DNA of 64,000 bases, taken from the IMG/VR virus record IMGVR_UViG_3300035670_011224, positions 32,001 through 96,000 of that record; one strand, given 5' to 3'. The position numbers were made by a program, and so were the translations under genes. Positions within the stretch are counted from its first letter, which is position 1. Each line of letters begins with the position of its first letter. Source of the DNA: a virus. The notes under the pieces were generated by a model, which was given only the letters and a program-made list of their open reading frames with translations, made no database searches and was not told the origin of the DNA. Shown here in pieces: positions 37,829 to 64,000 of the stretch.

Positions 37829-38307
37829 ATTACACCATTCAATTGTCTCAGCCACTCAAGATTTGGATCTATATAAGAAATTTTCATACCGCTCATTTCA
37901 ACGAACATATCGAATCTATTTTTTGCATCATTATCAAATAAAATTGTGCCATGATCGTCTATCATATAAACTGTATCTATGCCCTCTTGGTGTAGAGCTA
38001 TTATGCAATCATTACAGCATTGACCAGTAACATAAGCTGTGCCACCATCCGGCCTAACAACACAATTAGCGAGAGCATTTTTTTCGCTGTGTACCATCCA
38101 ATGGTATTTTTCAGGTCTTGTTAGAGGCAATTGGCTATCATCCAACCCTTTGGGAAATCCATTGTATCCTACCCCGAGAATACGATTTTGTTTATCGGTT
38201 ATGACACATCCGTGCTGGGTATGAATATCGTGGCTTCTTTGAGAAACCACTTTGGCTAACCCAAGAAAATAATCGGTCCATGACGGTCTGTTTTTTGATT
38301 GTATCAT
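37825..38307 (-). CDS. dCMP deaminase
   Basis: GYNGFP, HSEKNA, QCCNDC. Confidence 0.92.
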   Translation of the reverse strand: MIQSKNRPSWTDYFLGLAKVVSQRSHDIHTQHGCVITDKQNRILGVGYNGFPKGLDDSQLPLTRPEKYHWMVHSEKNALANCVVRPDGGTAYVTGQCCNDCIIALHQEGIDTVYMIDDHGTILFDNDAKNRFDMFVEMSGMKISYIDPNLEWLRQLNGVI

Positions 38308-39263
38308 TCATGTATTATACTGTCATTCCTGATCGTGTCAACCCGTTTTTGTATGATCGTGGCTTTGTCAACAAACTCATATTTTTGAATAGGATTTGGT
38401 AGCATATGATGCCATTTGATTGTGAAATTTGATTCTGATTCATCTAATATGTGGCCATAAACATTAAGATCTTCTTGTAAATAACAGTCATTATTATATA
38501 GTTTTACCATATGAAAATAATTATTTGGAGCTTTAGTGTTTAAAATTTTTATACATTGTAGTTGAGGATAATAAAAATTAAGATGATTATATGGAATAAT
38601 ATAACCAAATATTCTTTCCAAAGAATGAGAATACGTTCCCAGCATTGATTCATTTACTTTTTTAGTCTCTTGAGATAATAATTTCTGAAGTAAATGGTTG
38701 TAGGGTAGAAAATGCTGTTTAAATAACTCTGTTTTGCTCATAAACATATTACCACCAAAAAAAGAATATTGATATATGTTAGAATATTGAATATTTAATA
38801 TGTCACACAAATATAAAATTTTTTGATTATGATATAGTTCATTATTGCTAGATAGTAAAAATTTATTACCAATAGCGCCACAGTTGCTATGATGTATTGT
38901 TTTATAGTTGTTATTAAAAATATCATTATCACCAAAAAAATCGTGTAATAAAATGTGTCTCCAAGCAATTTGATTGTATTGTCCTAATAAGCTTTTTTTA
39001 CTATGTAGTTTTATAAAATATGGTTCTTTAATTAATTCTAAAATATTGAGAAAAGGAGCAACATCTGCTCCATAATTATCACAAAATAAAATTGTTGTAT
39101 CAAAATTTTTTTCTGCATTTTTTATAATATGTTTTTGAGATCCGTTATCGTTATACAAACAGAGGTAGAGATGGATATGATCCTTAAAAGGAGATAATAT
39201 CTGTAAAAAATTGTTCCATAAATCTAAATAATACAAAGATAAACTAATAGCTAATTTATTCAT
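38304..39263 (-). CDS. RgpF (rhamnan synthesis F)-like protein
   Basis: NYGADVAPFL, KLHSKKS, FFGGNMF, HSLERIFG; likely start MNKLAISL at 39263. Confidence 0.78.
   Translation of the reverse strand: MNKLAISLSLYYLDLWNNFLQILSPFKDHIHLYLCLYNDNGSQKHIIKNAEKNFDTTILFCDNYGADVAPFLNILELIKEPYFIKLHSKKSLLGQYNQIAWRHILLHDFFGDNDIFNNNYKTIHHSNCGAIGNKFLLSSNNELYHNQKILYLCDILNIQYSNIYQYSFFGGNMFMSKTELFKQHFLPYNHLLQKLLSQETKKVNESMLGTYSHSLERIFGYIIPYNHLNFYYPQLQCIKILNTKAPNNYFHMVKLYNNDCYLQEDLNVYGHILDESESNFTIKWHHMLPNPIQKYEFVDKATIIQKRVDTIRNDSIIHE
38314..38341 (-). promoter_or_regulatory. Consensus sigma70-type promoter for the nucleotide-metabolism operon
   Basis: Minus strand TTGACA-16 nt-TATAAT, ending 7 nt before the ATG. 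Confidence 0.8.
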
Positions 39264-39948
39264 CTTGTATATTAGGATAAAAGTTTTGTAGCAAAAGAAT
39301 TTCAAATTGAAGTAAGGATTTAAGATTTTGTAAAACTTTTTTGGATATATTTGCGTTATAATTATTAGTATTTACTCTTGATTCTTCCAAAATAAGACCG
39401 AATGGATTGTTATGATTCAATTCTGTAATTGATTCATTCATATAATCTGATTTTATAATAAAATTATATTTTGATAATTCTTCTATAGCGATATTATATT
39501 TTGTTTCTATATCTAAGTTTAGATGGCCATATTTAAAATATGTTAAGTAATCTATGGTTATGTTACCGTATTCTTTAGTTTTTTCTTTTAGTATATTGTA
39601 TGAACAGTATTCTGGATTTAATTTATCAAAAAAATACATATGGCTAATAAATCTTAATATAGGATGTCTAATACTAATAATCCTGAATGTTGAAGAAATA
39701 TCTAAATTAAAAGTTTTTTCAAAAAAATATGCATAACTATGATCAGCAAATAATTTTGTGTCATTATGAATAATGGGTATATATTGGTTATCTTTTTGTA
39801 AACATATATTATTGTGTGTAAATTCTGATATATATATTGGGGTTTGTGAGAAATATGGGTTGGATAAACAAGCTTTATATAAGGATGTTTTAAAGCTACT
39901 TCCTCCACACTTTGGGATATGATTAAAAATTATTTTAGAAAATTTCAT
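39256..39948 (-). CDS. Sulfotransferase (Sulfotransfer_2-like)
   Basis: 5'-PSB FNHIPKCGGSS and 3'-PB RHPILRFIS. Confidence 0.8.
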   Translation of the reverse strand: MKFSKIIFNHIPKCGGSSFKTSLYKACLSNPYFSQTPIYISEFTHNNICLQKDNQYIPIIHNDTKLFADHSYAYFFEKTFNLDISSTFRIISIRHPILRFISHMYFFDKLNPEYCSYNILKEKTKEYGNITIDYLTYFKYGHLNLDIETKYNIAIEELSKYNFIIKSDYMNESITELNHNNPFGLILEESRVNTNNYNANISKKVLQNLKSLLQFEILLLQNFYPNIQDE

Positions 39949-40610
39949 AATAAATACCCCATAGCGTTTTCTATTTTTATATCTAAATTTGATTTTATAA
40001 TATCATATATTTCTTTTTTAATTTCATATTCTTGTTTTAAAAAATTATTTTTAATATCTGTATATGGTTCAATATTTAATTTACTAGATATTATGTCTTG
40101 AATTTGTGATATATTGTTGCACAAGTCTTCGTATCTTATAAAGATATAATTTTGTGCAATTTTTGGAAGTTTATAAAGTAAATAATTATATTTTATATTT
40201 CTCATTTCAAAAATATTTTTATATCTATCTAAAGTATATATATTTCTTTCAAAAATAATTTCTTTTTCTAAACAAAGATTTCCATTTTCTGTTTCATATG
40301 AATATATGGGGTTTAATAAAAAATCTGTAATATTATTTTCAGTTTTCATATGATATGGTTGTTTAAACATCGCGTGAATCCATTGAAATGGATCTCTAGT
40401 TATGCATATAAATAATGTGTTTTTCCCGCTAAGTATTATTTCTTTATTATGAAAACCAAAAAAATGTTTCCAGCCAAAAAAATATGTAACTGGTATATTA
40501 TAATAATCAATAATAAGAGATTCTAAAAATTTTGTTCCGCAGTGTCTTTCTGCATAAATAGTAAAATTATTTATTTGTGTATTCATATAATTTTTTATAT
40601 GCGTAATCAT
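39945..40610 (-). CDS. Sulfotransferase-like protein
   Basis: ERHCGTKFL, GWKH, RDPFQW, IRYEDL. Confidence 0.7.
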   Translation of the reverse strand: MITHIKNYMNTQINNFTIYAERHCGTKFLESLIIDYYNIPVTYFFGWKHFFGFHNKEIILSGKNTLFICITRDPFQWIHAMFKQPYHMKTENNITDFLLNPIYSYETENGNLCLEKEIIFERNIYTLDRYKNIFEMRNIKYNYLLYKLPKIAQNYIFIRYEDLCNNISQIQDIISSKLNIEPYTDIKNNFLKQEYEIKKEIYDIIKSNLDIKIENAMGYLL

Positions 40611-41367
40611 GCATTTCTTGACTATGATAATAATTATTTATTATTTTATCTTTTATTTTGTATGGTAAACCGTCTGCACACACACATTCTACATAATTAG
40701 AACATAAATTACTCATAGATTTTATCATATCTCTATTTATAAAATGTGGAAATCCACCCCAGTAACTTTTTATATCTGTATATAGTTCTTCATATTCCGG
40801 AGCTCTTGTAGATAAATACAATAAAATTTTATTAGTTTTTATGTTGTTAAATAATATCTTCATTTCATTTAAATAATTTATTCTATTTTGTATTTTAATA
40901 TTTTCAGCTAAATTTTTATCTTTTAATATTTCTTTATATATAGTTTCTGCCATTTGAAATATAGAGTCAGAATTTTTATATCTAACCTGACCTTGATTTT
41001 TTCCTAACTCAAGTAAATCATTGTATATAGATCTACCAGAAAATATCTCAATTATACAAAACTCTGCTTTATTTATAAAATCAAATATATGTTTATATTG
41101 ATTAAAATATGATGGACCAGCGCCAGAAACTCCTAAATTAAATCCATTTATACCAATAGTTTCTGATAACTGTTGAGTATATGGTCTTTGGCAATATCTA
41201 CCAAATGTTCCAGCGGCACCTATTGACACAAAATATTTTTTATTAATATCAATTGGTTTTGGTCCTCTAATGGCCCAATTTATTTTATCAAGCGTCCAAA
41301 CTTGGTAATCTATAATATCTTTATCTTCTAGTTGATATCCTATATTGTGATTAATTATATTATTCAT
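40567..41367 (-). CDS. SGNH-like / DUF6473-like protein
   Basis: IGAAGTFGRY..PY...NLGVSGAGP; C-terminal YYHSQEMH. Confidence 0.55.
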   Translation of the reverse strand: MNNIINHNIGYQLEDKDIIDYQVWTLDKINWAIRGPKPIDINKKYFVSIGAAGTFGRYCQRPYTQQLSETIGINGFNLGVSGAGPSYFNQYKHIFDFINKAEFCIIEIFSGRSIYNDLLELGKNQGQVRYKNSDSIFQMAETIYKEILKDKNLAENIKIQNRINYLNEMKILFNNIKTNKILLYLSTRAPEYEELYTDIKSYWGGFPHFINRDMIKSMSNLCSNYVECVCADGLPYKIKDKIINNYYHSQEMHDYAYKKLYEYTNK

Positions 41368-41382
41368 AGAATAAATTCTTTA

Positions 41383-41712
41383 TTATAGTAGATATTGATA
41401 AATATAATCACTATGTTGAAAACACAAGTCTACTGTTTTTTTACACCCGACATAAGGACCAACATTATTTTTTTCATAATATTTTATAATTTTTTTAAAT
41501 TTATCAGAAGTGTAATTTTTGATGTAATTTATAAGATTCTTATTTTTTTCTATCCAGTCGGGTCTATTGTAGAGTAAATTATCTGAAGAATCTACAAATA
41601 GAACTAATGTGTATTTATTAGCCCCATAGCATTGTTCCAATTTCCCTAACACTAATTGAAGTATTTCGAGTTTAACAAAACATTGTATTCCTATAACAAA
41701 ATTATTTTTCAT
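41383..41712 (-). pseudogene. Truncated GT-A glycosyltransferase
   Basis: GT-A N-terminus (..LVLFVD..NVG....KKTVDLCF.HSDYI) ends just before the expected EDD motif. Confidence 0.55.
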
Positions 41713-41726
41713 TGATTATAAACTTT

Positions 41727-44663
41727 CTATAATACATATTCTAGTTTAGTAAAATTAATATTTGGATCAAAATCCCAAAAATAGTTTGGATTTTTATTGT
41801 GATTTAATTTGAGAAGTTTGTTTCCGGATAAGCAGCTATCTTTTAAGATAGTGTATAGTTGCTCATGTGTTAAGGGCTTATGAAATAGCGACTGTTGTCC
41901 TCTTTCATCTGCATGAATATCTGTTGCGCTCCATCCATAAATTCCTATGTGAGCGTGTCTATTCATTTCTGGCGCTATCGCTATAAGATTATGGGTATGT
42001 AGTATACGATTTATATCAAGATCTAATCCACATATTTCGTCTGATCTTATAGAATCATAAAATGATTTAATATATTTATAAAACTTAAATCTGCTAATTA
42101 CACAAGATCTTATAGATACATCGGATTTAACAATTTTATTTGGATTGCCTTTTGGTTTTTCCCAAGCGCCTATATGAAAATATAAGATATGGTCGTCTTT
42201 TCCAAGAGCTGCGTCGTGTAGTGCTAGTTCTTCGCACATTCTTAAATAATCTTTGCTAATTAATACATCATCTTCTCTAGTTATTACGTAATCATAATCG
42301 GTATTATCAAAAATATATTTAACACTATCATACCAACTATATTTACCACTATTTTTAGTCCAGTTTATTCTTTTATATTCGCTAGTAATTACCTTGTCGT
42401 AGTCTGATACTATACCATATTCTCTATGAGGATCAACAAAAATATACGTTTCAAAATTTTCAGAATTTTTAGCATTTTTTTGGTATTCTAAAGACAATTG
42501 TAACATAGCTGATCGGTCATAGTATGTGGGTATAACTATACATATTTTATCATGGCAAGTATTGTTTTTTATATAGTTTTTTAATTGATTATTTTTTATA
42601 ACATCTATAAATTTAAGTCTATTAATTTCTTGAAATCGCTTTGTTCCGTTCTCAATGTTCGTGCCAGCGCTAGATCCTTCGTTGTGAATAGCTATAGCTC
42701 TAGGTTCATATAAGGTATTTAAACCAAAGGAATGTCCTCTGTATTGTAATTCGCTATCCTCATAATACATAGGATAAAACGTAGTATTAAATACACCTAT
42801 TTTATTTATGGTTTCTCTTTTGATTAATAAAAAACATCCGGAACAATATCCAACATATTTAGGTATATTATATATGAGACTATTTGGATCATCATATCTT
42901 CCTATATTTCTACCAAATCCGTCTTCATACAATTCTGCCCCTGCTTCCGCTAATCTTCCATCAGGAAAAATAGTTTTACCGCCAACAAAACCAATATCTC
43001 CGGAAGAATATGCGGATGATACCATATGCGATAGCCAATCTTCTGATACTATTTCAATATCATCGTTAATCAATACTACATCAGAATTTTTATATTTTAT
43101 ATCTAGCATTACTTTATTATTTGGAATAATAAAAAATTCATTACTTTTATTTTTAATATAAGTAACTTTATTTTCTATGTTATTTTCTTTTAAAAAATCT
43201 CCTATAGAATTTTCTATTTGCTGTGTTGTGCTATTATCTGTAACTACTATATGATAATTTTTATAGCTTGTTTTTCTTATGATAGAAGATAGGCATTTGT
43301 ATAGTCGTTCTTTGTTATTAAAAGCAACAATACTGATCACCATATGTTTATCTTCTAATGTATTTTTTAAAACATCAATACTTCTTTGTGTAGACACTAT
43401 ATTATGTATATGTTTTTGTCCTAAACTTGCTATTTTTTGTTGTTCATTGATGTTGTTTTTATAGAAAGCACATAAACTTTTAACAAAACTATCGTTACTA
43501 GTACAAATAAATCCATTTACAGAGTCAGTAAGATTTATGCCCTCATTACCTATTGGCGACGTTATAATCGCTAGATTTGCCATAGCGGCATCGCATATTT
43601 TGCCTTTTATACCAGCACCCCAATTTAATGGGGCTAATAATACCGAACATTTTGAATATATACTGTCCAAATCAGGAACATGATCAGTAATAATTATCTG
43701 TTTATCATTATAAATATCAGAAGAAAAATTGATATTTTTACTATTAGGACCAACAATAAATAATTTTGGTTTTTGGTAAATAATATTTTTGTATTCTTTA
43801 GTTTCTTGAAAATTTTTATATATTTGAACAGCTTGTTGTGCGGCATCTATATTTGGGCGATGATCATAACTACCAACAAATAAAATATTATATTCTATTT
43901 TTTTTATATTTTTAGGATCATGAATATTACTAAGAATTTTGATATTATTATTATATCCTATTTCTTTTTGTAGAAATATTTTATCATCATTTGTAACAGT
44001 AAATATAACATTCGCTTTTTTATAAGTATTTATTTCTTTGTTTTTATTACTATATAATAGTTCGTCTGTGATATTTAATAATCCCGCATTTTTTCCTCTG
44101 TGTTCTCTAATCCAATGTATATCAACAGTATCAATAATAATTTTAATATTAGGATAATAAGATTTTACAATATCAACATATTGATCTGCTATATCATACC
44201 AAGAAAATATTGCATTGTTATATATAACATTATTATCAACTGCTTTTTTTAGATTTATATCAAAATATTTATCATTTTTTATATCTGGTAAATTAATTGT
44301 TATACCTAGTTGTTGTAATTTTTTAATATGATAATTTTTTTTATATCCATTACAAAAAAAAGATACGTTATATTTCAAATATAATTTTAGAATTGTGAGT
44401 ATTTGTAAAAGTCTATTACCTCCGCTGCTCATGTCGTAGTCTGGTGCGATTGGTGAAAAATAGAGCAGATTTTTTCCACTATTCCAAAATTCTGCATTAT
44501 TTTTTGTTTTATAATCTATATAACGTCTATTTTGTTTGATTCCAAAATTTAGATAGTGTTCTATACATGCTTTATCATTTGGTAATATTGATTGTATATC
44601 TTTGTTAATCTCAAAATATTTTTTAGGATTAAAGTTTATTGGTAACATGCTATAGTTAGTCAT
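41727..44663 (-). CDS. Multidomain glycosyltransferase (GT4 + GT2 + second GT-A)
   Basis: GT4 APLNWGAGIKGKI; GT2 LINDD..EAG..YCSGC..YYEDSE; C-terminal TREDD; N-terminal FNPKKY..HYLNFG motif. Confidence 0.88.
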   Translation of the reverse strand: MTNYSMLPINFNPKKYFEINKDIQSILPNDKACIEHYLNFGIKQNRRYIDYKTKNNAEFWNSGKNLLYFSPIAPDYDMSSGGNRLLQILTILKLYLKYNVSFFCNGYKKNYHIKKLQQLGITINLPDIKNDKYFDINLKKAVDNNVIYNNAIFSWYDIADQYVDIVKSYYPNIKIIIDTVDIHWIREHRGKNAGLLNITDELLYSNKNKEINTYKKANVIFTVTNDDKIFLQKEIGYNNNIKILSNIHDPKNIKKIEYNILFVGSYDHRPNIDAAQQAVQIYKNFQETKEYKNIIYQKPKLFIVGPNSKNINFSSDIYNDKQIIITDHVPDLDSIYSKCSVLLAPLNWGAGIKGKICDAAMANLAIITSPIGNEGINLTDSVNGFICTSNDSFVKSLCAFYKNNINEQQKIASLGQKHIHNIVSTQRSIDVLKNTLEDKHMVISIVAFNNKERLYKCLSSIIRKTSYKNYHIVVTDNSTTQQIENSIGDFLKENNIENKVTYIKNKSNEFFIIPNNKVMLDIKYKNSDVVLINDDIEIVSEDWLSHMVSSAYSSGDIGFVGGKTIFPDGRLAEAGAELYEDGFGRNIGRYDDPNSLIYNIPKYVGYCSGCFLLIKRETINKIGVFNTTFYPMYYEDSELQYRGHSFGLNTLYEPRAIAIHNEGSSAGTNIENGTKRFQEINRLKFIDVIKNNQLKNYIKNNTCHDKICIVIPTYYDRSAMLQLSLEYQKNAKNSENFETYIFVDPHREYGIVSDYDKVITSEYKRINWTKNSGKYSWYDSVKYIFDNTDYDYVITREDDVLISKDYLRMCEELALHDAALGKDDHILYFHIGAWEKPKGNPNKIVKSDVSIRSCVISRFKFYKYIKSFYDSIRSDEICGLDLDINRILHTHNLIAIAPEMNRHAHIGIYGWSATDIHADERGQQSLFHKPLTHEQLYTILKDSCLSGNKLLKLNHNKNPNYFWDFDPNINFTKLEYVL

Positions 44664-45354
44664 TATAATATAAACCTATTTTAAGATTATGATGAGATAC
44701 TATATATCCAAATATTCTTTCTAAAGAGTGAGTATACGTTCCGTGTTCTTCATTAATTTTATTTTTTTCATTTTTCAGATAAGACTCAAGTATCGAATAC
44801 TGCGGCAGTAATATTTGTTTAAACATATTAGTTTTACTAATAAAGGTTGATCCAGCAAAAAATGGACTATTTTTTAATTTAGTATAATTTAATTGTAGTA
44901 AATTACATAATGTTTTTATTTTATTTATATGTATAGATTTATCATTATTATGTAGTAAATATTTTTTATTTCCTATCATTCCTATTGTGGGCAATGATAA
45001 TGTTTTAATAGCGCGATCTACAATAGATGGTTTAAGTAAATGATTTAAATCATATCTCCAATTGGTATTTCCGTATCCCCATAAACTTTTTTTACTGTGT
45101 GTTTTTATAAAGAATGGTTCGGAGATAGCTTTTAACTGATATAAAAATGGTGCTATATCAGCTCCATAATTTTCATGGAAACTTAGAGAATAGTTCCAAG
45201 ACAAATTAGATAGGTCTTTTAGAATATGAGAAAAATTAGTATTAATACATAATCCTAAATATAATTTTATCTTATATTTTATATTTTCAATTAGTTCTTT
45301 ATACTCGTCCCATAAATCTGTATGATATAGATATAATGCTACAGCAATTTTCAT
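44656..45354 (-). CDS. Second RgpF-like protein
   Basis: NYGADIAPFL, KTHSKKS, FFAGSTF, HSLERIFG. Confidence 0.78.
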   Translation of the reverse strand: MKIAVALYLYHTDLWDEYKELIENIKYKIKLYLGLCINTNFSHILKDLSNLSWNYSLSFHENYGADIAPFLYQLKAISEPFFIKTHSKKSLWGYGNTNWRYDLNHLLKPSIVDRAIKTLSLPTIGMIGNKKYLLHNNDKSIHINKIKTLCNLLQLNYTKLKNSPFFAGSTFISKTNMFKQILLPQYSILESYLKNEKNKINEEHGTYTHSLERIFGYIVSHHNLKIGLYYND

Positions 45355-46946: not shown

Positions 46947-47195
46947 TTATTTATTAACAAATTTATTATATAATATAAGGCTTAATATGCCACCAGCCAC
47001 GCCCATAAATATTCCTGATGGACTCAAACTATCATATGTTCCTAAAATATAAAGTATTGCGCCTCCCATATACGAGCCAGCAACACCAAGAGCAACAGTT
47101 TGAAAAAAACCTAATCGTAAATTAATAGGAACTATAGCTTTTGCTAAAGAACCAACAAATAAACCATAAACTATCCATATAAGCAGATTAAACAT
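46947..47195 (-). CDS. GlsB/YeaQ/YmgE (transglycosylase-associated) membrane protein
   Basis: WIVYGLFVGSLAKAIVP...TVALGVAGSYMGG; three hydrophobic segments. Confidence 0.8.
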   Translation of the reverse strand: MFNLLIWIVYGLFVGSLAKAIVPINLRLGFFQTVALGVAGSYMGGAILYILGTYDSLSPSGIFMGVAGGILSLILYNKFVNK

Positions 47196-47577
47196 TGGTA
47201 GCCTCCAGAAGTGTTAAGGATTCGTTATCATCGAGATTCTTACCAACTTCCATGATGGCATTTTTTAAACTAACTCCGTATTGTTGATATTGTTTTTTGC
47301 TCAAGTGTTGTTTTAATATTTTATTTAGTCTATAATTATTTAACCAGCTATCTTTAATAGTTAAATTAACTATAGTATGTCTTAAGTCTAAAGCTTCACT
47401 CATTTTATCGTTCTTGCGTCTTTTGCTTCTACATTCCTGAATTACTCTTATAAGACTTAGTATAACACCGATTACTATAATTATTGTTATAGGATCAAAA
47501 CCATAGTTATTATTTTTAATGTTTGCTTTGTCTATAACCTTTTGAGCAATACGTTCCAGATTAGGATCTACTTGCAT
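47188..47577 (-). CDS. Membrane-anchored hypothetical protein
   Basis: DPITIIIVIGVILSLI transmembrane segment. Confidence 0.55.
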   Translation of the reverse strand: MQVDPNLERIAQKVIDKANIKNNNYGFDPITIIIVIGVILSLIRVIQECRSKRRKNDKMSEALDLRHTIVNLTIKDSWLNNYRLNKILKQHLSKKQYQQYGVSLKNAIMEVGKNLDDNESLTLLEATNV

Positions 47578-47592
47578 ATTTTTGTCTTTCTA

Positions 47593-47823
47593 TTAAGGTA
47601 AACAATATCCACAATCAACCATTTTGATTCCGTCTCCACTCAAATATTTTCCACTTCCTTTACAAACTGGACACTCTTTTCTTTTGTATTTTTTAATTGG
47701 TTCATTACCTATATGTTTAACTATAGATCCGGATAAAATAACAGGAGCTGTTGATGATCCGTTATATTTTATCGAAGTAAAAAATAATGATACGAATAAA
47801 ATTGGTAATATTAATTTATTCAT
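47593..47823 (-). CDS. Signal-peptide protein with CxxCxGxG zinc-finger motif
   Basis: Hydrophobic N-terminus; CPVCKGSG...CGYC. Confidence 0.6.
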   Translation of the reverse strand: MNKLILPILFVSLFFTSIKYNGSSTAPVILSGSIVKHIGNEPIKKYKRKECPVCKGSGKYLSGDGIKMVDCGYCLP

Positions 47824-52606: not shown

Positions 52607-52619
52607 AAGATTCGTCCTT

Positions 52620-53973: not shown

Positions 53974-53975
53974 AA

Positions 53976-55989: not shown

Positions 55990-57294
55990 TTATGGCACAA
56001 AATTGTATTGCTGACCGGAATAATATTCTGTTTTAGATGGTGTGACTGTTGGCGTTGTTGTTGGAGTAGGTGTTTCTGAGGATGTTAACGAAATTGTGGG
56101 TGTTGGAGTTGGTGTTTCCGAAGATGTTGGAGTTGGTGTGGAGGTTGGTGTTTCTGAAGGTGTTAGGGTGGGGGTTGGTGTGGGAGTTGGTGTTTCCGAA
56201 GATGTTTGTGTAGGAGTTGGTGTTGCGGTCAATTCTATTGAAGAGCTAGGAGTCTGGGTCTGTGTCACAGAAGCTGTTGGAGTAGGGGTTAATGTGGATG
56301 TTAGTGTCGAAGTAAAAGTTGGAGTGTTTGTATTTGTTATTGATGGTGTTGGAGTTAATGTTTGAGTATTGCTTGGAGTCAATGTTGGTGTTGGAGTTGA
56401 TGTTGGTTGTGATGTGGATGTTACTGTTGGGGTCTTTGTTTGGGTGGGCGTTTTTGTAGGAGTTCTTGTTTGTGTTGGTGTTTTTGTTGGTGTTTTTGTT
56501 GGTGTTCTGGTTGGCGTTTTTGTAGGTGTTCTGGTTGGATTCGGAGTTTTAGTGGGAGTTCGTGTTTGTGTTGGTGTTGGTGTGCTAGTTTTTGTTGGTG
56601 TTGGAGTAATAGTAGGTGTTAGAGTATTGGTAGGAGTATTTGTTGGAGTTGGAGTTGGTGTTTTTGATGGTAAAATAATAGGACTAGTACTACTACAATT
56701 AATAAATAAATTACTAATAATATTAACTAAATCACCATTTGTTTGTATCGGATCACTAGTATACAAAGGATTTGTCACACCTTTTTTATATAGTTTTATT
56801 ATGTGATAATTATTTTCTTTACTATTTTTACTAGTATTATAATTTTTGAAATCTAATGATAAATTACAAGAACAAGGCCGAATTATTTCGGCAGATGCGC
56901 AAAAATTGCCAATATTATCAAACCATGTTCCAGTATCAAAGATACCCAAATAAAGATATCCTGTTGTTGATGCTGTAAATATATGATTAGTTCCTATTGT
57001 AATACTATTATTTGTAGTAAAAGGTATTGTGCTACTATTTATATTAGATATAACACCAAAAGCAGTATTATAGTACAGTCCATTGAATCCATTTGCGTCG
57101 CTATTACAAAAAGTTCCATAATAACATGATACGCATCCTCTAACATTCACAGAAACTATATCTCCAGCATTTACAAACAATGATGTGTTTTTTAAGGTTG
57201 AGCCATCATTATAGTTTAATCTGGTTTCATTATTATTACAAATTGTTTCAATAATATTAGAACAATTATTTTGTATATTATTAGTATTATTCAT
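55990..57294 (-). CDS. LecA/PA-IL-like lectin domain plus long Pro-Thr mucin-like tail
   Basis: [13 protein letters not shown]...[20 protein letters not shown]; ~210 aa of PT repeats. Confidence 0.65.
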
Positions 57295-57312: not shown

Positions 57313-60300
57313 TTATGTTGTAATTATTCTTTCTGTCCAAGAAATTCCACTATCAGTACTGGTATAAATATGTCCGACATATACAGTGGAAACTAGTTTG
57401 GTTCCATCGGCACTACTAGTAATACGATACCAGTTTCGATTATTTTCTCTCGCTATCCAAGACACCCCACTATCAATACTTGTATAAATTTGTCCATTTT
57501 CTACAACAGCAGCAAGTTTAGTTCCATCACTACTACTGGTTATATCTATCCATTGTCTTTGTCCTGATGCAAATCGTGCAATCCAAGTTGCGCCACTATC
57601 GGAACTAGTATAAATATATCCATTATATACAGTTGCTGCTAATTTAGTTCCATCACTGCTGCTGGTTATAGCAGTCCAAGCATGAACCATATTAGAAATA
57701 GATCTGACTGTCCAATTTACTCCGCTATCAGAACTAGTGTAAATATCTCCATTATTAATTGATACTGCTAATTTTACACCATCACTACTACTAGTAACTC
57801 TAATTAAACCAGCAGAAATTGTGGTTATTCTGTTCGTCCAATTAGCTCCACTATCAATACTAGTCGAGACTCCACCGCTATTACTTGCAACTAGCTTAAC
57901 CCCATTAGAATTACTAGCTATATCAATCCAAAATATATAATTATTATTTTTTAGTGTCCAATTGATTCCACTATCGGAACTAGTATAAACATCACCATTA
58001 CCTATAATTGCTACAAGATTATTTCCATCGTCACTACTAGCAATAGCTTTCCATTGTCGATTACTTTGTGTTGCTAGTCTTGCTATCCAGTTGGTCCCAC
58101 TGTCACTACTTGTATAAATTTGTCCATTCCAAGCAACAGCAGCAAGTTTAGTTCCATCACTACTACTGGTAATATCGCTCCATGGTTTGCTATAGTTTGT
58201 TGGAGTAACTGTTGGCGTGACTGTTGGTGTAGTGTTTGGTGTTGTCGCGGGAGTAGATGTTAGCGTAATAGTTGGCGTTGGAGTAGTTGTTTGGGTTACT
58301 GTATTTGTGGGAGTAACTGTTGGTGTTACTGTTGGAGTAAGAGTATTAGTCTGGGTGGTTGTTGGTGTAACTGTGTTAGATGGAGTAACTGTTGGAGACA
58401 CTGTTGGTGTTGCCGTATTGGTAGGAGTAACTGTCGGTGTTACTGTGTTCGATGTAGTAACAGCTGGTGTTGCTGTAACTGTTGGCGTTGTCGTATTGGA
58501 TGGAGTAACTGTTGGGGTTACAGTATTACTCGGAGTAACTGTTGGGGTTGCAGTATTACTCGGAGTAACTGTTGGGGTTGCAGTATTACTCGGAGTAACT
58601 GTTGGGGTCGCAGTATTACTCGGAGTAACTGTTGGAGTAACTGTGTTGGATGGAGACACCGTCGGCGTTACTGTTGGAGTAACTGTGTTAGATGGAGACA
58701 CCGTTGGCGTTGCTGTTGGAGTAATACTACTTGTAGGAGTAACTGTCGAAGTGGCTGTTGGTGTGGTGGTTGGTGTTGTTGTTGGAGTAGATGTTGGCGT
58801 AATAGTTGGTGTTGGAGTAGGCTTGGGAGTATTTAGTATAATTTTAATAGATTGATTTTTAATATCACAATAATTATTTTTAATATGAGGATTATAAGAA
58901 TTTATAGTTGGTTGAATATATGATTGATTATTACTAATAATTTTAATATGATTGCTACAAGAGATGTTATTGGATTGTACAACGTGAGGATTAATATGAT
59001 TAATAGTTGGTGGAGTATACAGCATATTATTTCCAATAATTTTTATAGAAGAGTTATTTGAACATTGTTTTTGATATGTTATTGGTTCAACATAAGGATT
59101 GTCGCATCCGTAGCATCTAGACTCTTTTGTTGATGCTTTGATAGTGCTTCCATTGGAACTAGCACAATTACCATAAATTATTATTTGATATTTATCAGTA
59201 TAAAAATTAGTTATTTCAATAGGATCGAATGTGATATTTGTAGAATTAATAACGCAATTATTTTTTTCAACATATTCTTCTACACATATATAATAACAGC
59301 ATTCTCCAACACAAGACGATGGAAGCGGCGTAGATGCTGGTGTTGGCGTTGGCGTGAGTGTGGGAGTTGCTGATGGTGGTGGTCGCGGACTTGGGGACGA
59401 AGATGGTAATGGCGGAGACGGTGGACTCGGAGGACTAGGTGGCGATGGTGGACTTGGTGGACTTGGTGGACTTGGAGGCGATGGAGGACTTGGTGGGCTT
59501 GGAGGTGATGGAGGACTTGGTGGCGATGGTGGACTCGGTGGACTTGGAGGTGATGGTGGACTTGGTGGACTTGGTGGCGACGGAGGACTTGGCGGCGATG
59601 GTGGACTTGGTGGCGAAGGCGGCGATGGTGGACTTGGTGGCGAAGGCGGCGATGGTGGACTTGGTGGCGAAGGCGGCGACGGTGGACTTGGAGGCGATGG
59701 TGGACTTGGTGGACTTGGTGGACTTGGTGGACTTGGCGGCGAAGGCGGACTTGGTGGACTTGGTGGCGACGGAGGACTTGGCGGCGAAGGCGGACTTGGT
59801 GGACTTGGTGGCGAAGGCGGCGATGGTGGACTTGGCGGCGATGGTGGACTTGGCGGTGAAGGAGGACTTGGTGGCGAAGGCGGCGATGGTGGACTCGGTG
59901 GACTCGGAGGACTAGGTGGCGACGGAGGACCGGGTGGCGGTGGCGGTGGTGGCGGCGAACAACCCTCGCTACTACAAGAAGGACACTGAGGACAAGCAGA
60001 TGCTCCGCCGCCTTCTTCTATACATTGACCACACGTTGGACTAGAAGGATTGGTATCGCAAAATAGAAATTTAGTACAGCACGGATCTTGTTCTGGACAA
60101 GGATCCTCTGGTGTGCAGACTTTAACTAGGTTGTTCGGGCTGTTTGGGCAACAACGACTCTCAGGATTTACTCCATCAGTTTCTTGATTAAAAATTATAT
60201 TACAATCGTTTTCATCTTTACCCATATAACAACTACCTTGTACTAATCCTGTAAAAACTCCATTCTGATCTGCACAAGCTTCAAAACTTGTAGTATAGAA

Positions 60301-60462
60301 CGGAGCACCTTGACAAGTTCTAAGACCATTATTACAATCAACAATTTGCTCAACTGGACATTGTTGATCGCATGGTATCTGTGAAACTATTTTACAAGTG
60401 CCACATATACCTCCTTCATATTCTAAACTATTAATAGTATCTTGTAATTGTAATTTTTTCAT
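57313..60462 (-). CDS. Cys-rich / (PPS)n / PT-stalk protein with C-terminal BNR (Asp-box) beta-propeller
   Basis: Cys-rich N-terminus; ~58 PPS units; PT stalk; seven SxDxGxxW repeats. Confidence 0.8.
58521..58640. repeat. About four 30-bp tandem repeats ([10 protein letters not shown])
   Basis: cagtattactcggagtaactgttggggttg units at 58521, 58551, 58581 and 58611. Confidence 0.9.
59410..59955. repeat. 9-bp-period coding repeat encoding (Pro-Pro-Ser)n plus a poly-Pro run
   Basis: ggtggactt / ggcggcgat / ggcggcgaa synonymous variants; GC-rich. Confidence 0.95.
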
Positions 60463-60516: not shown

Positions 60517-61977
60517 TTATGCTCCAGGAACATCAATACATATTCCATTTCTACAAATTTGTCGATCAGTACAGCAATTACGTCCACAACAAGGATTATG
60601 ATCTGGACCGGCGATAGGACACGCCATAAAATCACAACATACGTATTCACTTTTCTTTAGACATTGTAAATTAGCAATATTAGTAATATCTCCACAACAA
60701 ACTTCATTGTCTTCACAACAATTTGCGCTTCCACAACAAAATTTATTATCAGGACATATATGAGCCAACGGCGTACCAGCAAAACAACATTTGCTTCCTC
60801 TTTGCTGATAGCAACCACCACCCGGACAACAAGTTTCACCAGGATTGCAGCTTTCGATGTCCGATCCTCCTTTATCGGGACAATTTTTACATACTCTTCT
60901 ACATTTTCCATCTCCGCATACTTTTTCGCCTTGTTCGCAGCATCTAGGCTGTCCACTCCCATCTTTTCCGGCTCTACGCTCTGAACAACACTGGCCGGCA
61001 TGCCATTTGTGTCCTTTAGCACAACATACTTCTGTATTGCGCTCGGGAGCAGGAAAACACCTTTCTCCTGCTTTTGTGTTGCAGTAAGAACCTGTATCGC
61101 AATTACATCGTATAAATCCTGGATATTCGCAAAATACATTATTACACACTGGATCCCATTGGGCAGTGCCTTTTTTTCCAGATTGTGGAGGGCATGTAAA
61201 ACAAGTTGGACCCTGAGGTGTGTTCTTGCAGTCTTCCCTGACACAGCATTTTCCACCACAAGAAATCTCTCTATTACTACAACACTGTTTTGTTCCATCA
61301 TTTTTCTGTATAATTTTATCAGTCCTACAACATGTTCCATTAGATAAACATGAATGTGTAGCCATATTACACGGTTTTTTATTACAGCATACAAATCCGT
61401 CCTTGAGCAATATTCCATTACAACATTGCTCTTCATCTACACAATTATCTTCGCAACATATTTGCCCACTATCAGTATCACAGCCACATCGTTGCTCTCC
61501 ACACGGTCCTGCGCAATTTGCATCAGCTTGAGTTGAGAATTCTTCATTATTTACTATAAATCTATCACATTTAGTTTTTATAATTTTACCATCACAACAT
61601 TCTTCGTCCAGAGCTAAAATCTTTCCGCCACAACAGGCTGTTGATAATACGCATTGTCCATTACAACAAGTTTTTATACTATTAGTAGTATCACAACATG
61701 AGTCTCCGCAAGTTGTTAATGGAGGTTTTTGATCTTCACAAGTATGATATTCTGTTGTGCTCCACGATGTATAATGCACACATTCTCCATACTTAATATC
61801 TCCATCATTGCAACTATCTCCTAAATTATCATTTGTGGAACAATAACAATTATCATCACAATCTTGCTCTAAAAACCACATAGGTTTGGAAAAAATTTCA
61901 TTTTGAACTTCTATACTAATATGTTCTAATGAAGGAATTCCACATCTCCACCAGCAAGAAGAATTACAATTATTCAT
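60517..61977 (-). CDS. Cysteine-rich repeat protein (CC-x-C type)
   Basis: Repeated CC.G.CC / C...CC units over 486 aa; no signal peptide. Confidence 0.75.
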   Translation of the reverse strand: MNNCNSSCWWRCGIPSLEHISIEVQNEIFSKPMWFLEQDCDDNCYCSTNDNLGDSCNDGDIKYGECVHYTSWSTTEYHTCEDQKPPLTTCGDSCCDTTNSIKTCCNGQCVLSTACCGGKILALDEECCDGKIIKTKCDRFIVNNEEFSTQADANCAGPCGEQRCGCDTDSGQICCEDNCVDEEQCCNGILLKDGFVCCNKKPCNMATHSCLSNGTCCRTDKIIQKNDGTKQCCSNREISCGGKCCVREDCKNTPQGPTCFTCPPQSGKKGTAQWDPVCNNVFCEYPGFIRCNCDTGSYCNTKAGERCFPAPERNTEVCCAKGHKWHAGQCCSERRAGKDGSGQPRCCEQGEKVCGDGKCRRVCKNCPDKGGSDIESCNPGETCCPGGGCYQQRGSKCCFAGTPLAHICPDNKFCCGSANCCEDNEVCCGDITNIANLQCLKKSEYVCCDFMACPIAGPDHNPCCGRNCCTDRQICRNGICIDVPGA

Positions 61978-62007
61978 TTTGATAATCCTTTGAAGTTTTA
62001 TTTAAAT

Positions 62008-63999
62008 TTAGCACCATTTAATACATTCGGTATAAGTATCACTATCTTCGTCAATATCACATTTCATACACCTATCTCCAAAACTACAGCCAACACAAGA
62101 TCCATCAACGCATTTTCTACATAATTTTTGACTACATTGATTAATACAAACAGCAGAACCTGGAAAAATTGATGAGCTACATATCTCACATTTTGTAGTG
62201 TCGCACTTTAGTACACACTCTCCATTTTGACACTCTTCGCATTTTTTAGGATCGCACTTAGTGACACATTGTCCATTTATACATACTTCACATTTATTTT
62301 TATCACATTTGTTAACACATCCACCTTTATTATCACACTCTTCGCATTTTTTACTATCGCAATTGATTATACAATTACCTCTAGAGTCGCATGTTTCGCA
62401 TTTAGCAGCGTCGCATTTTGCAACACATTTATTATTTTCGCACTTTTCACATAATATGCTACAATTAGGTACACAATTTCCACGTTCGCATCTTTCGCAT
62501 TCGTTACATTTTGATTCGCATTTTCCTTTTCCATCACATATTTCACAATTATTGCGATTACAAACAACAACACAACCGATTGGGCCACATACTTCACATT
62601 TGTCTGGATTACATATATATATACAGTTTTTATTTATACAACTTACGCAAGGATTGTTTTTACATTGCGAAACACAATTTCCACCAATACATTCTTCACA
62701 TAAAAATTCGTTACATGATGATTTACATACTCCTTGATCGCAATATTCACATTCTTTACAAGTAGACACACAATTTCCTTTGCCATCACATTGTAAACAT
62801 TGTTTTGAGTCACATCCACCATCTACACATTGATTATTAACACAAATTTGACAGTCATTACATATGTTGGTACATTTTCCACTAAGATCACAATCCGAAC
62901 AATCTCCACACTTAGGAACACACTCTCCTTTTGCATTATCGCATTTTAAACACGGAGATGCTTCCGAACATGATTTATATCCCTTATCGGTACAAACCGT
63001 ACATGGTGGACCTGATTCTACACAACTTCTACTACCATTTATCATTACACATTTTCTACCGGAACATTGTGGAGTAGAACATGGATCAACACACTTTCCA
63101 TTTACACAATCTAAACAAGGATCATCACAAAAACATTTTTCGTCTTTACATTTGCAAGATCCACATTCACAACAAGGGTCTTTTACACATTTTCCATCTT
63201 CACAAATTTCGCATAATAATTCATTGCATGACGATTTACAATGTCCATTTTTACATATTTCGCAATTATCTGGTTTACAAAATATTTTACAATCACCGAA
63301 TTCTTTATCGCACTCTTCACATTGTTCGGCTCTGCAAGTATATACGCATCTTCCTTGACCATCACACTCTAAACATTTTTTTGGATCACATGATGATACA
63401 CACTGTCCATTTTCACATATTTCGCAATTTAGATAATCACAACTATCTTTACAAAAAGATCCAGTACATCTCAAACAATTATTACTATCGCAACTATCTA
63501 CACATTTTCCATTTTCACAGTCGTAGCAGCCGTTACATTTGGGTGTACACCATCCACCAGAACAAATTTCACATTCATTGCATTGATTTTTACATACTCC
63601 GTTGTCACAAATTTCGCATTTACTTTTGTCACATTTAGAATAACATCTTCCAGATAAACATTCTAAGCAGCTTTTGGGATCGCAAGGATCTACGCATTTA
63701 GAATTACCGTCACAAACTAAACATGAATTTTTACCACCACAAGCACTTACACATTGGTCATTTTCGCACACCATACAATTTTTACCGTCACAACCATCCA
63801 CGCACTGATCGTCGATACATCTTTGACAACCACTACACGAATTGTAACATGTGCCATCGCAACGCAAACAATTACCACTACATTTTGGAACACATTCACC
63901 TGTTTGATAATTACATACTAAACACGAAGACGCTTGAGAACATGGTAGATAACCCTGTTGTGTACAAGCTCTACAAAATCCTCCATTATCAACACACGA
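62008..63999 (-). CDS. Cysteine-rich repeat protein (C-x4-CxxC-x2/3-G-x-C), 5'-truncated by the window
   Basis: Frame is open to the window edge (SCVDNGGFCRAC...); about 30 units such as CDPKKCEECQNGECV. Confidence 0.8.
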   Translation of the reverse strand, partial: SCVDNGGFCRACTQQGYLPCSQASSCLVCNYQTGECVPKCSGNCLRCDGTCYNSCSGCQRCIDDQCVDGCDGKNCMVCENDQCVSACGGKNSCLVCDGNSKCVDPCDPKSCLECLSGRCYSKCDKSKCEICDNGVCKNQCNECEICSGGWCTPKCNGCYDCENGKCVDSCDSNNCLRCTGSFCKDSCDYLNCEICENGQCVSSCDPKKCLECDGQGRCVYTCRAEQCEECDKEFGDCKIFCKPDNCEICKNGHCKSSCNELLCEICEDGKCVKDPCCECGSCKCKDEKCFCDDPCLDCVNGKCVDPCSTPQCSGRKCVMINGSRSCVESGPPCTVCTDKGYKSCSEASPCLKCDNAKGECVPKCGDCSDCDLSGKCTNICNDCQICVNNQCVDGGCDSKQCLQCDGKGNCVSTCKECEYCDQGVCKSSCNEFLCEECIGGNCVSQCKNNPCVSCINKNCIYICNPDKCEVCGPIGCVVVCNRNNCEICDGKGKCESKCNECERCERGNCVPNCSILCEKCENNKCVAKCDAAKCETCDSRGNCIINCDSKKCEECDNKGGCVNKCDKNKCEVCINGQCVTKCDPKKCEECQNGECVLKCDTTKCEICSSSIFPGSAVCINQCSQKLCRKCVDGSCVGCSFGDRCMKCDIDEDSDTYTECIKWC

Positions 64000-64000
64000 A

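Follow-up and report, generated by a model that had tools for sequence, protein, structure and literature searches.

Variable islands with Thr/Pro-stalk protein genes and a swappable glycan-enzyme cassette in an uncultured phage

Giant viruses such as Mimivirus and the chloroviruses decorate their surface fibrils and capsids with their own glycosylation machinery, independently of the host secretory pathway. The streptococcal rhamnan (Rgp) and ABC-transporter-type O-antigens are assembled by soluble GT4, GT2 and RgpF-family enzymes at the cytoplasmic face. In mycobacteriophages, glycosyltransferase (GT) genes are said to lie beside capsid and tail genes (reportedly Freeman et al. 2023, Cell Host Microbe). 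For these phages, structural proteins are proposed to be O-glycosylated by phage-encoded GTs while still in the cytoplasm, ahead of lysis (PMC12582341). In Trypanosoma cruzi, finally, GT60 enzymes attach GlcNAc to mucin-like proteins as GlcNAc-alpha-1-O-Thr (PMC9472816, PMC3769586).

Here we analyzed a window of 64,000 nucleotides from a viral record. The source is an uncultured freshwater jumbo phage whose host is probably a planktonic member of the Planctomycetota. Its terminase, portal and tail fibres were located on a sister contig that is 99% identical and reaches 48.7 kb beyond the start of the record, and the genome comprises at least 201 kb. The phage is not unique, since the large uncultured clade to which it belongs shares its features.

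Variable islands in a conserved backbone

All genes of the region are on the minus strand, as the initial annotation had stated. The contiguity described there was misleading, since conserved backbone genes divide the region. Comparison with six relatives revealed three to four separate variable islands around a lysis-like cassette:

38304-46931, minus strand: island 1
46947..47823, minus strand: backbone separating islands 1 and 2, three small membrane or signal-bearing proteins (82, 129 and 76 aa)
48057-49807, minus strand: island 2
49828..53316, minus strand: backbone, papain-like peptidase with LAGLIDADG intein, then three to four small membrane proteins
about 53497-55593, minus strand: island 3
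55990-65222, minus strand: island 4

The genes for the 82-, 129- and 76-aa proteins, whose membrane or signal assignment is based on hydropathy, are kept in all relatives, and in G003-G007 they adjoin the dCMP deaminase gene at a distance of about 40-160 bp. The second backbone stretch also has homologues in all relatives and looks like a lysis cassette. Its peptidase carries a QNSWG motif and an intein of family PF14528. This intein is missing in G001 and G004-G007, whose forms comprise 307-309 aa; with about 687 aa, the homologue of G003 is long and might likewise contain an insert. At the hot spot equivalent to this region, G005 has about 33 kb coding for proteins of the RCC1-propeller, LamG and FN3 types, along with Cys-rich and Thr/Pro ones. 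Enzymes and stalk proteins had initially been taken as one unit; their adjacency results from several independent hot-spot insertions and not from one operon.

Stalk proteins, Cys-rich proteins and a distant GT60-type enzyme

The stalk and Cys-rich proteins are encoded as follows:

45354..46931, minus strand: 525-aa stalk protein, last gene of island 1 (PF03781, E 5e-8)
48057..49807, minus strand: island 2, 487-aa stalk protein (48057-49520; PF03781, E 6e-19) and 96-aa partner
53497..55379, minus strand: island 3, 158-aa weak sulfotransferase candidate (53497-53973), then 467-aa stalk protein (53976-55379)
55990..57294, minus strand: first gene of island 4, 434-aa protein with orphan Cys-containing N-terminal domain and 220-aa Thr/Pro stalk
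57313..60462, minus strand: 1049-aa stalk protein
60517..61977, minus strand: 486-aa protein of an orphan family, 17% Cys, 21 CC dipeptides
62008..64000, continuing to 64803, minus strand: 931-aa Cys-rich protein

All five proteins initially described as bearing long Thr/Pro or Ser/Pro tracts were recovered. At the DNA level these low-complexity tracts are tandem repeats with 30-nt units that are up to 98% alike. In the 525-aa protein an N-terminal FGE-sulfatase/C-type-lectin-like head is followed by a Thr/Pro tract (residues 315-438), a small domain and a Thr/Pro tail (479-525). Its head is 35-43% identical to proteins within the tail-fibre modules of G003 and G004. The 487-aa protein consists of an N-terminal [10 protein letters not shown] leader, a Thr/Pro stalk (8-197) and a C-type-lectin-like head. 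Since the record contains neither a reverse transcriptase nor a template repeat, this protein is not a target of a diversity-generating retroelement (DGR) here. The 467-aa protein combines two Thr/Pro tracts with a Gly-rich C-terminal domain, which matched two G004 proteins flanking tail-fibre genes (phmmer E 1e-37 and 4e-17). For the N-terminal domain of the 434-aa protein one homologue was detected in 5.8 billion clusters, where it follows a PF04862 domain; the structure model of this protein reached a pLDDT of 35. The 1049-aa protein is composed of a Cys-rich N-terminal domain, an (SPP)n rod of about 170 aa, a middle domain, a Thr/Pro stalk of about 200 aa and a C-terminal BNR propeller (BNR_6, 30.5 bits versus a cut-off of 27 with the domain scanned alone). 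Lectin-like heads had been claimed for the stalks in general; this holds for the two FGE-sulfatase/C-type-lectin-like heads, the third being the BNR propeller and the 467- and 434-aa proteins having no assignment.

Among strains whose backbones agree at 98-100% identity, the identity of the stalk proteins is just 40-93%. The 525-aa protein reached just 92.6% in such a comparison and the 487-aa protein just 74.6% between sister strains. Because the heads recur in tail-fibre modules of relatives and vary strongly between strains, the stalk proteins are probably virion or tail-fibre-type adhesins. Thr/Pro tracts also occur in genuine tail-fibre proteins of the same phage, for example at residues 865-916 of a 924-aa protein with PHROG tail-fibre matches (E 3e-30).

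The very Cys-rich proteins of the initial annotation are likewise present. The 486-aa protein has five homologues among 1.84 billion representatives and no match in Pfam, PHROG or Atlas. The 931-aa protein contains about 21% Cys overall and 23% in its part inside the window. Its Cys-containing N-terminus is followed by a poly-Pro/(SPP)n tract and by repeats of C-x2-C-x4-5-C-x3-C, a four-Cys unit of 17 residues that occurs at least 34 times; a Pfam search that included YTV gave no match. In a crude hydropathy scan neither the enzymes nor the stalk proteins showed a hydrophobic leader or membrane segment, in agreement with the lack of signal peptides noted earlier for the stalks. Without export signals, the stalk and Cys-rich proteins would be cytoplasmic products whose most likely way out of the cell is the virion.

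A further enzyme is encoded about 18 kb beyond the window:

window-equivalent 81799-83073: GT60-type polypeptide GlcNAc-transferase (PF11397, E 5e-72)

This protein keeps the DSH motif, has no membrane segment and is predicted to be soluble. It is as conserved as the terminase (61-77% identical in three complete relatives), and the best 120 of its 7535 homologues are 73-87% identical. The enzyme and Thr/Pro tracts were found together in 8 records and were both missing in G006, G007, G008 and G022 (Fisher p = 0.02, uncorrected for relatedness in a small, phylogenetically clustered sample). One record (G023/G025) contains a partial GT60-like gene and no tracts. G006 retains the lectin-like head of the 487-aa protein (62% identity) as a stalk-less 311-aa protein.

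The enzyme cassette of island 1

At lower coordinates than the 525-aa stalk gene, island 1 contains the following genes:

38304..39305, minus strand: RgpF-like protein, 319-333 aa, first gene of the island, GC 25% (PF05045, E 8e-10)
39256..39948, minus strand: Sulfotransfer_2 sulfotransferase, 230 aa, N-terminal PKCGGSS motif (PF03567, E 1.2e-7, above the curated cut-off)
39945..40610, minus strand: 221-aa protein, sulfotransferase-like as a lead (Atlas look-alike clusters)
40567..41367, minus strand: DUF6473 protein, 266 aa (PF20078, E 5e-24)
41383..41712, minus strand: 109-aa ORF matching just the N-terminal part of 250-263-aa proteins in relatives
41727..44663, minus strand: 978-aa fusion, cassette core, with GT4 (247-413) and GT2 (444-665) domains in Pfam and a 289-aa C-terminal domain
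44656..45354, minus strand: RgpF-like protein, 232 aa (PF05045, E 2.4e-13), with its start codon overlapping the 525-aa stalk gene's stop codon

Both RgpF-like proteins proposed initially were thus found, with matches confined to positions 269-497 and 271-500, respectively, of the 503-position model. The first gene is not present in G003-G007 and has a 43% identical homologue at the same hot spot in L160. Of three proposed sulfotransferases the protein at 39256..39948 is firm. Its best PDB match is heparan sulfate 2-O-sulfotransferase, a weak one (E 0.069), and in L155, L156, L157, L159, L163 and L166 a homologue (35-41% identity) is the immediate upstream neighbour of the GT4-GT2 gene. The 158-aa candidate of island 3 stayed below the Sulfotransfer_2 cut-off (Pfam E 0.041; PHROG E 0.004). 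The 221-aa protein gave no match in Pfam or PHROG; its language-model look-alike clusters are viral, and in one of them 23% of the members carry PF00685. The supposed SGNH-like protein at 40567..41367 is a DUF6473 protein by its PF20078 match, and no SGNH family was matched. The 109-aa ORF is probably a remnant, judged by 34-52% identity to 251-263-aa proteins of G001, L155, L162 and L163. As for the supposed GT4-GT2-GT-A fusion, the GT4 and GT2 domains are present and the third domain matched no family. The fusion has 180 homologues, mostly of about 715 aa and about 50% identical, without the third domain, which is a stand-alone gene in L157, L158, L161 and L166.

The island occupies a recurrent hot spot, and even strains that are about 99% identical in their backbones do not agree in the middle of it. 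Where one sister strain has a middle segment of 2.6 kb, the other has a different one of 1.4 kb; G001 lacks the 221-aa and DUF6473 genes and has a 695-aa form of the GT4-GT2 protein. At the same hot spot between the dCMP deaminase and 82-aa genes the cassette was found in L155, L156, L160 and L161, each time in the company of other partner enzymes. The initially expected co-occurrence of the GT/sulfotransferase cassette with stalks across related phages was not observed (Fisher p = 1.0 in 13 records): within these records two tract-free phages carry the cassette and three tract-rich ones lack it. The Thr/Pro tracts track the GT60-type enzyme, not the GT4-GT2 cassette.

Interpretation and comparison with known systems

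Tentatively, we favour GT60-primed glycosylated fibres together with an optional, strain-specific glycan tailoring cassette for a fibre or host acceptor. The region represents a run of hypervariable accessory islands, with modular fibres of the adhesin type probably encoded by islands 2-4 and by the final gene of island 1. In each fibre a Thr/Pro or Ser/Pro spacer would present a head for binding (C-type-lectin-like, BNR propeller, Gly-rich or orphan), with Cys/Pro-rich rod proteins alongside. The Thr/Pro tracts would most likely be O-glycosylated in the cytoplasm, with the clade's conserved soluble GT60-type enzyme as proposed initiator and neighbouring GTs extending the chain. Island 1, a swappable set of GT4-GT2 core, sulfotransferase and variable partners (RgpF-like, DUF6473), would add a strain-specific elaboration to a glycan, either that of the fibres or a lipid-linked one of the host. 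From the initial proposal of O-glycosylated fibres on the particle, adhesin-type stalks and a plausible phage-encoded O-glycosylation of the Thr/Pro tracts are retained. The cassette as the responsible enzyme set is not, since the tracts follow GT60; stalk glycosylation is probably carried out mainly by this conserved enzyme elsewhere in the genome. Sulfated, rhamnose-bearing fibres are unsupported, no observation linking either sulfate or rhamnose to them. The unsuccessful structure modelling of two heads counts against the glycosylated-fibre reading.

Somewhat doubtful, yet deserving serious weight, is the view that island 1 works as a polysaccharide cassette of the moron type, its enzymes altering a lipid-linked glycan on the host surface (LPS, capsule or holdfast-type) in the course of infection. 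Superinfection block or receptor masking would then be possible, and the proximity of the stalk genes a hot-spot coincidence. The resemblance of the RgpF, GT4 and GT2 set to ABC-transporter-type rhamnan and O-antigen synthesis fits this view, as do GT4-GT2 homologues with source names such as 'O-antigen biosynthesis protein', the cassette's presence in tract-free G019, G022 and G023 and absence from tract-rich G003-G005, and a strain-level swapping similar to that of serotype cassettes. PAP2 and KpsS-like genes elsewhere in the genome also point toward lipid-linked glycans. However, island 1 contains no flippase, ABC transporter, Wzy, ligase or initiating phosphoglycosyl transferase, and solubility is predicted for every one of its products. 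Moreover, an RgpF-like gene within the island shows translational coupling to the 525-aa stalk gene, the stop/start overlap (TAATG at 45354) being as initially described, and the phage appears lytic, no integrase having been seen in the genome parts scanned. In many bacterial proteins Pro/Thr linkers serve as unglycosylated spacers. The stalk tracts could be such plain extensions, with GT60 and the other GTs acting on other targets, and the GT60 gene indeed does not neighbour the stalk genes in this phage or in several of its relatives. The co-occurrence of enzyme and tracts, their joint loss in G006 and G007, where the head persists stalk-less, and the terminase-like conservation of GT60 make this rather improbable.

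The stalk and Cys-rich proteins might also be no virion parts at all but decoys, matrix or cell-wall-like material, released at lysis or acting in or on the infected cell. Their genes lie outside the structural operon around the lysis-like cassette, on the strand common to replication and lysis genes, and a late-type promoter-like motif, GGTGTAT(A/T), found ahead of several structural genes, is not directly upstream of the stalk genes. The Cys/Pro-rich composition recalls the cysteine-rich proteins of planctomycete cell-wall preparations (PMC8567305). We consider this unlikely, given the recurrence of the domains in tail-fibre modules of relatives, the lack of export signals and the failure to find YTV or other homology to host wall proteins. 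Glycosylation of phage DNA is known (PMC13326640), and island 1 abuts dCMP deaminase and ribonucleotide reductase genes. Modification of DNA bases by the GTs is nevertheless highly improbable: the record contains no thymidylate-synthase-like hydroxymethylase, and the cassette occupies other positions in L162 and L163. To our knowledge, sulfotransferases and RgpF-like enzymes have no DNA role.

The favoured reading of GT60-primed fibres resembles the mycobacteriophage case, which is reported to be shown chemically, in that phage-encoded GTs are proposed to act on the phage's own structural proteins. In contrast, the candidate initiator is of GT60 type and encoded far from its acceptors, the glycans would be placed on long mucin-like tandem repeats of accessory fibres, and a swappable sulfotransferase-bearing cassette is added. 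With TcOGNT1/2 of T. cruzi the phage candidate shares the family PF11397, proposed Thr-rich mucin-like acceptors and chain extension by other GTs (PMC9472816, PMC3769586); the protist enzymes are Golgi membrane proteins, whereas the phage protein is soluble without a membrane segment. The combination of GT4, GT2 and RgpF-family enzymes is that of Rgp and ABC-transporter-type O-antigen assembly. The phage island differs by the lack of primer transferase, transporter and ligase, by an RgpF match limited to the C-terminal half of the model, by the absence of dTDP-rhamnose synthesis genes among the phage proteins scanned and by its additional sulfotransferases. As in DGR variable proteins (TvpA, Mtd-like receptor binders), an FGE-sulfatase/C-type-lectin-like fold forms the variable fibre head, but here diversity arises through strain-level divergence and gene exchange. 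Finally, a virus-encoded glycosylation machinery for surface fibres, as inferred here, is shared with Mimivirus and the chloroviruses, which are eukaryotic viruses with other enzymes and characterised glycans, whereas the present virus is a tailed bacteriophage with a putative glycan.

Genome extent and island structure

The record comprises 152,429 bp with a GC content of 31.7%, and the window covers its bases 32001-96000. CheckV rated the record as 100% complete, yet the contig of a sister strain (G001, 131 kb, 99% identical) extends 48.7 kb beyond the first base of the record. This extension encodes the large terminase, the portal protein and PHROG-recognisable tail-fibre genes, and packaging and head genes are missing from the record despite its completeness rating. 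Thus, the true genome must measure 201 kb or more. The record opens with a truncated ORF, whose 2382 aa correspond to the 3' portion of a 4746-aa gene (sister contig loci L013-L015). The terminase revealed 253 IMG/VR relatives at 74-79% identity; complete genomes among them are 200-238 kb in size, two with terminal repeats. The closest cultured-phage terminase is only 23-25% identical, and when cultured phages were searched with the glycosyltransferase (GT) fusion, two of the stalk-protein heads and the terminase, matches were either remote or lacking. Many freshwater Planctomycetota MAGs (loci L172-L251) contain sequences that are 72-77% identical to a phage DUF1501 gene (L009:17173-18417), so that the host is likely a planktonic planctomycete, which we regard as a lead only. 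Some of the MAG contigs bearing this gene (178-282 kb) may be phage genomes that were binned into MAGs.

For island mapping every protein was compared with the complete relatives G003, G004 and G005 and the smaller relatives G006 and G007. The features concerned are the following.

38304-46931, minus strand: island 1, seven enzyme genes and the 525-aa stalk gene
39256-39948, minus strand: sulfotransferase
39945-40610, minus strand: 221-aa protein
45354-46931, minus strand: 525-aa stalk protein
48057-49520, minus strand: 487-aa stalk protein
53497-53973, minus strand: 158-aa protein
53976-55379, minus strand: 467-aa stalk protein
55990-57294, minus strand: 434-aa stalk protein
57313-60462, minus strand: 1049-aa stalk protein
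60517-61977, minus strand: 486-aa Cys-rich protein
62008-64803, minus strand: 931-aa Cys-rich protein

Because the dCMP deaminase gene adjoins the homologue of the 82-aa gene (46947) in all five relatives, island 1 is an insertion; its enzyme genes have a GC content of 21-27%. A second insertion spans 48057-49807. The third (55990-65222) carries the genes for the 434-aa and 1049-aa stalk proteins, both Cys-rich proteins and a 140-aa protein, and is flanked by conserved 106-aa and 175-aa genes which adjoin each other in G003, G004, G005 and G007. Variation is also seen around 53497-55593. Between the islands lie conserved genes, among them those for a papain-like peptidase and several small membrane proteins, which together resemble a lysis cassette. 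The initial annotation had described enzyme and stalk genes as contiguous. Comparison with G003-G007 revealed that this apparent operon is a mosaic, its contiguity being a by-product of insertion at hot spots. The proposed stop/start coupling of the 525-aa stalk gene at 45354 is present as a TAATG overlap.

The papain-like peptidase (49828-51774, QNSWG motif) is split by a LAGLIDADG intein, which is missing in G001 (309-aa peptidase) and in G004-G007. The G003 homologue is long (approximately 687 aa) and may carry an insert too. A promoter-like motif, GGTGTAT(A/T), was observed at 48035, 53356, 55964 and 65857 (minus strand), in each case 40-55 nt upstream of a start. It also stands before several structural genes (in G001). 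The actin-like and protease genes and those backbone genes that come next downstream of each island are preceded by it, and it is absent before the stalk genes. Window-equivalent positions 68142-68714 encode a phage sigma-70 region-4 protein. In G004 a four-gene insert on the opposite strand (34660-38705; L097:14660-18705) lies within the structural module; among its products are a GT2-like protein and an alginate lyase (E 5e-47).

Enzymes of island 1 and the Cys-rich proteins

The assignment of two RgpF-like proteins was borne out by PF05045 matches of 38.4 and 50.1 bits (cut-off 25). Both proteins (232 and 319-333 aa) cover only model positions ~269-500 of 503, that is the C-terminal half, and the full-length two-part RgpF architecture is missing in both. 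No rml-type gene for dTDP-rhamnose supply was seen among the proteins scanned; the island of a relative carries a GDP-mannose-4,6-dehydratase-like gene rather than an rml-type gene. Three sulfotransferases had been proposed, one of which is firm: the product of 39256-39948 matched Sulfotransfer_2 (PF03567) with 32.5 bits (cut-off 22) and exhibits an N-terminal PAPS-binding-type motif, PKCGGSS, at residues 12-18. The other two are weaker candidates. The 158-aa protein scored 14.4 bits with Sulfotransfer_2, below the cut-off (E 0.041; PHROG E 0.004), and the 221-aa protein has no Pfam match, its sulfotransferase likeness being a language-model lead from the Atlas. A further sulfotransferase-like gene lies near the record end (L010:10937-11752, genome 150937-151752; Sulfotransfer_4, E 2e-5, just over the cut-off). 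It adjoins a 323-aa gene whose homologues come after the GT4-GT2 gene in several relatives.

The protein initially called SGNH-like matched solely DUF6473 and no SGNH-clan family in Pfam. The postulated GT4-GT2-GT-A fusion (978 aa) contains GT4 and GT2 domains according to Pfam, while its third domain has no family match. PDB sequence searches were uninformative; that with the DUF6473 protein returned nothing relevant to an SGNH identity.

Both Cys-rich proteins are real. The 486-aa protein contains 17% Cys and has a very small family, for which 1.84 billion representatives yielded just five further members; an Atlas search with it gave no usable match. In the 931-aa protein a poly-Pro tract precedes an array of at least 34 tandem 17-residue units of the form C-x2-C-x4-5-C-x3-C. 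No similarity was found between the two, and neither matched a Pfam family, the YTV domain included, at E <= 0.01. No Erv1/ALR gene for a sulfhydryl oxidase of the phage's own is present in the record. The four-Cys units may bind zinc or form disulfides after lysis.

Stalk proteins and the GT60 enzyme

As proposed, each of the five stalk proteins carries a Thr/Pro or Ser/Pro tract of 80-460 residues. At the DNA level the tracts consist of tandem repeats, some of them 98% perfect. A crude scan of the enzymes and stalk proteins likewise revealed no hydrophobic leader or membrane segment, in agreement with the reported lack of signal peptides. Four Thr/Pro stalk proteins share a short leader consisting of M, five to six residues, K or S, and then CC, after which the stalk starts directly or within a few residues (window 49490-49520; G003 189721, 192581 and 194419). 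This leader could be an anchor or docking peptide.

The stalks had all been described as topped by lectin-like heads. Pfam supports such heads on the 525-aa and 487-aa proteins (FGE-sulfatase/C-type-lectin-like, PF03781; 33.3 and 69 bits, cut-off 23.3), and the 1049-aa protein bears a BNR propeller instead. An AlphaFold2 model of the lectin-like head (six-sequence alignment) reached a pLDDT of 33, and a structure model of the N-terminal domain of the 434-aa protein (single sequence) one of 35, values too low for use. The lectin-like heads share 35-47% identity with proteins within the tail-fibre modules of G003 and G004, and the 467-aa protein has a Gly-rich C-terminal domain with matches to two G004 proteins which flank tail-fibre genes. 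Thr/Pro tracts are also part of a PHROG-confirmed tail fibre and of a 441-aa protein with a propeller-like repeat domain, both encoded in the phage's own structural operon. At the equivalent hot spot of G005, about 33 kb is taken up by RCC1-propeller, LamG and FN3 proteins beside Cys-rich and Thr/Pro proteins. Between the sister strains backbone proteins are 98-100% identical, and stalk proteins 92.6%, 74.6% and ~40%, a variability which is typical of host-contact proteins. The stalk proteins share their domains with the clade's fibre genes. From these domains and the unusual variability between sister strains we infer that the stalk proteins are probably located on the virion. A reading of the lectin-like head as the target of a diversity-generating retroelement (DGR) was rejected: the record contains no reverse transcriptase (RVT_1) and, as a template repeat, no second copy of 48671-48790 (blastn, word size 7).

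Many more GT genes lie outside the window. One of them (L008:3799-5073) matched PF11397/GT60 with 243.7 bits (E 5e-72). Its product is soluble and has a DSH motif (metal-binding DxH/DxD type) at residue 100 which is conserved in four phages. The gene is 61-77% identical in G003-G005; among its 7535 homologues the best 120 are 73-87% identical, a conservation about that of the terminase. In T. cruzi, GT60 enzymes attach GlcNAc to Thr residues in mucin-like proteins (PMC9472816, PMC3769586). Our literature search found no paper linking GT60 to phages. The co-occurrence of GT60 genes and Thr/Pro tracts was determined in records rated at least 90% complete.

Co-occurrence of GT60 genes and Thr/Pro tracts in records rated at least 90% complete
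GT60 and tracts both present: 8 records
GT60 and tracts both absent: 4 records (G006, G007, G008, G022)
Partial GT60-like gene, no tracts: 1 record (G023)
Tracts present, GT60 apparently absent: 1 record (G020)

The G020 contig breaks off within island 1 and thus probably stops short of the GT60 region. The association has a Fisher p of 0.02, shared ancestry being ignored. G006 possesses the same head domain (62% identity) without any stalk. Support for the GT60-like enzyme as a candidate polypeptide (Thr, Ser or Hyp) GlcNAc-transferase is indirect and comes from its co-occurrence with the tracts. A 2OG-Fe(II) oxygenase gene is found elsewhere in the genome (PF13640, E 4e-7) and is shared by G005 only among the three complete relatives.

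Possible acceptors of the GT4-GT2 cassette and relation to known systems

Homologues of the GT4-GT2 core (~715 aa, ~50% identity) occur in many jumbo-phage contigs. Several clade members carry the cassette at the same hot spot, often with a sulfotransferase gene just upstream of the GT4-GT2 gene and with changing partners (RgpF-like, NDP-sugar dehydratase, GT-D-like, GT90-like). Between the sister strains ~2.6 kb of island 1 (window 39930-42568) is exchanged for ~1.4 kb (G001 9412-10816), with flanks 93-98% identical. The exchanged stretch encodes the third domain of the fusion, a 109-aa ORF, the DUF6473 protein and the 221-aa protein; its replacement in G001 encodes proteins of 263 and 202 aa.

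The acceptor of this cassette could be a fibre glycan, which is favoured because the coupled stalk gene lies inside island 1. It could also be a lipid-linked glycan of the host. For the host glycan speaks the distribution of the genes: the co-occurrence of enzymes and stalks expected from the initial annotation did not hold across relatives, the GT4-GT2 core being found in tract-free records and missing from the tract-rich G003-G005 (p = 1.0). PAP2 and KpsS-like genes elsewhere in the genome also point to a host acceptor. Island 1 itself contains no transporter, flippase or priming enzyme. Glycosylation of DNA was discarded, as no ThyA-like hydroxymethylase was found in the record.

The initially proposed phage coat stands in part. 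Mucin-like, probably glycosylated phage fibres are plausible, and a role of the neighbouring enzymes in their glycosylation would be hypothetical; nothing supports sulfated or rhamnosylated fibres. A joint reading, which we consider unlikely as a whole, would be that in a widespread freshwater Planctomycetota jumbo-phage clade the soluble GT60 enzyme primes mucin-like O-glycans on accessory virion fibres. The swappable sulfotransferase/GT4-GT2/RgpF cassette would add a strain-specific sulfated "glycan serotype" to the stalks. Disulfide- or zinc-stapled Cys/Pro-rich rods would complete a coat that imitates, in its composition, either cysteine-rich wall proteins of the host or sulfated polysaccharides eaten by it.

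Should the stalks be glycosylated, tailed phages belonging to an abundant lake clade would produce mucin-like glycoprotein fibres by cytoplasmic enzymes of their own, which would widen virion glycosylation to GT60 as a new enzyme family and to acceptors of a new type. The exchange of the sulfotransferase cassette between strains would then correspond, on the phage side, to the serotype switching of bacteria, with a bearing on adsorption, grazing resistance and the stickiness of phages in lakes. The corrections matter as well: a "100% complete" record lacks packaging and head genes, and what looked like an operon is a mosaic that arose by insertions at hot spots.

Giant viruses are established to glycosylate their virions, and to our knowledge virion glycosylation has so far been shown chemically only in these viruses and in mycobacteriophages. 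The likeness of the phage Cys-rich proteins to planctomycete YTV cell-wall proteins is compositional only (PMC8567305). Plant-type extensins (HRGPs) are marked by Ser-Pro(3-5) repeats, a secretory signal, prolyl 4-hydroxylase and glycosylated Hyp. The phage proteins have (SPP)n and poly-Pro tracts and no signal peptide, and the 2OG-Fe(II) oxygenase gene lies elsewhere in the genome. For mycobacteriophages, virion glycosylation by phage glycosyltransferases is established according to PMC12582341, which cites its reference 80. There it has been shown chemically, whereas for the uncultured phage described here it is predicted from genes.
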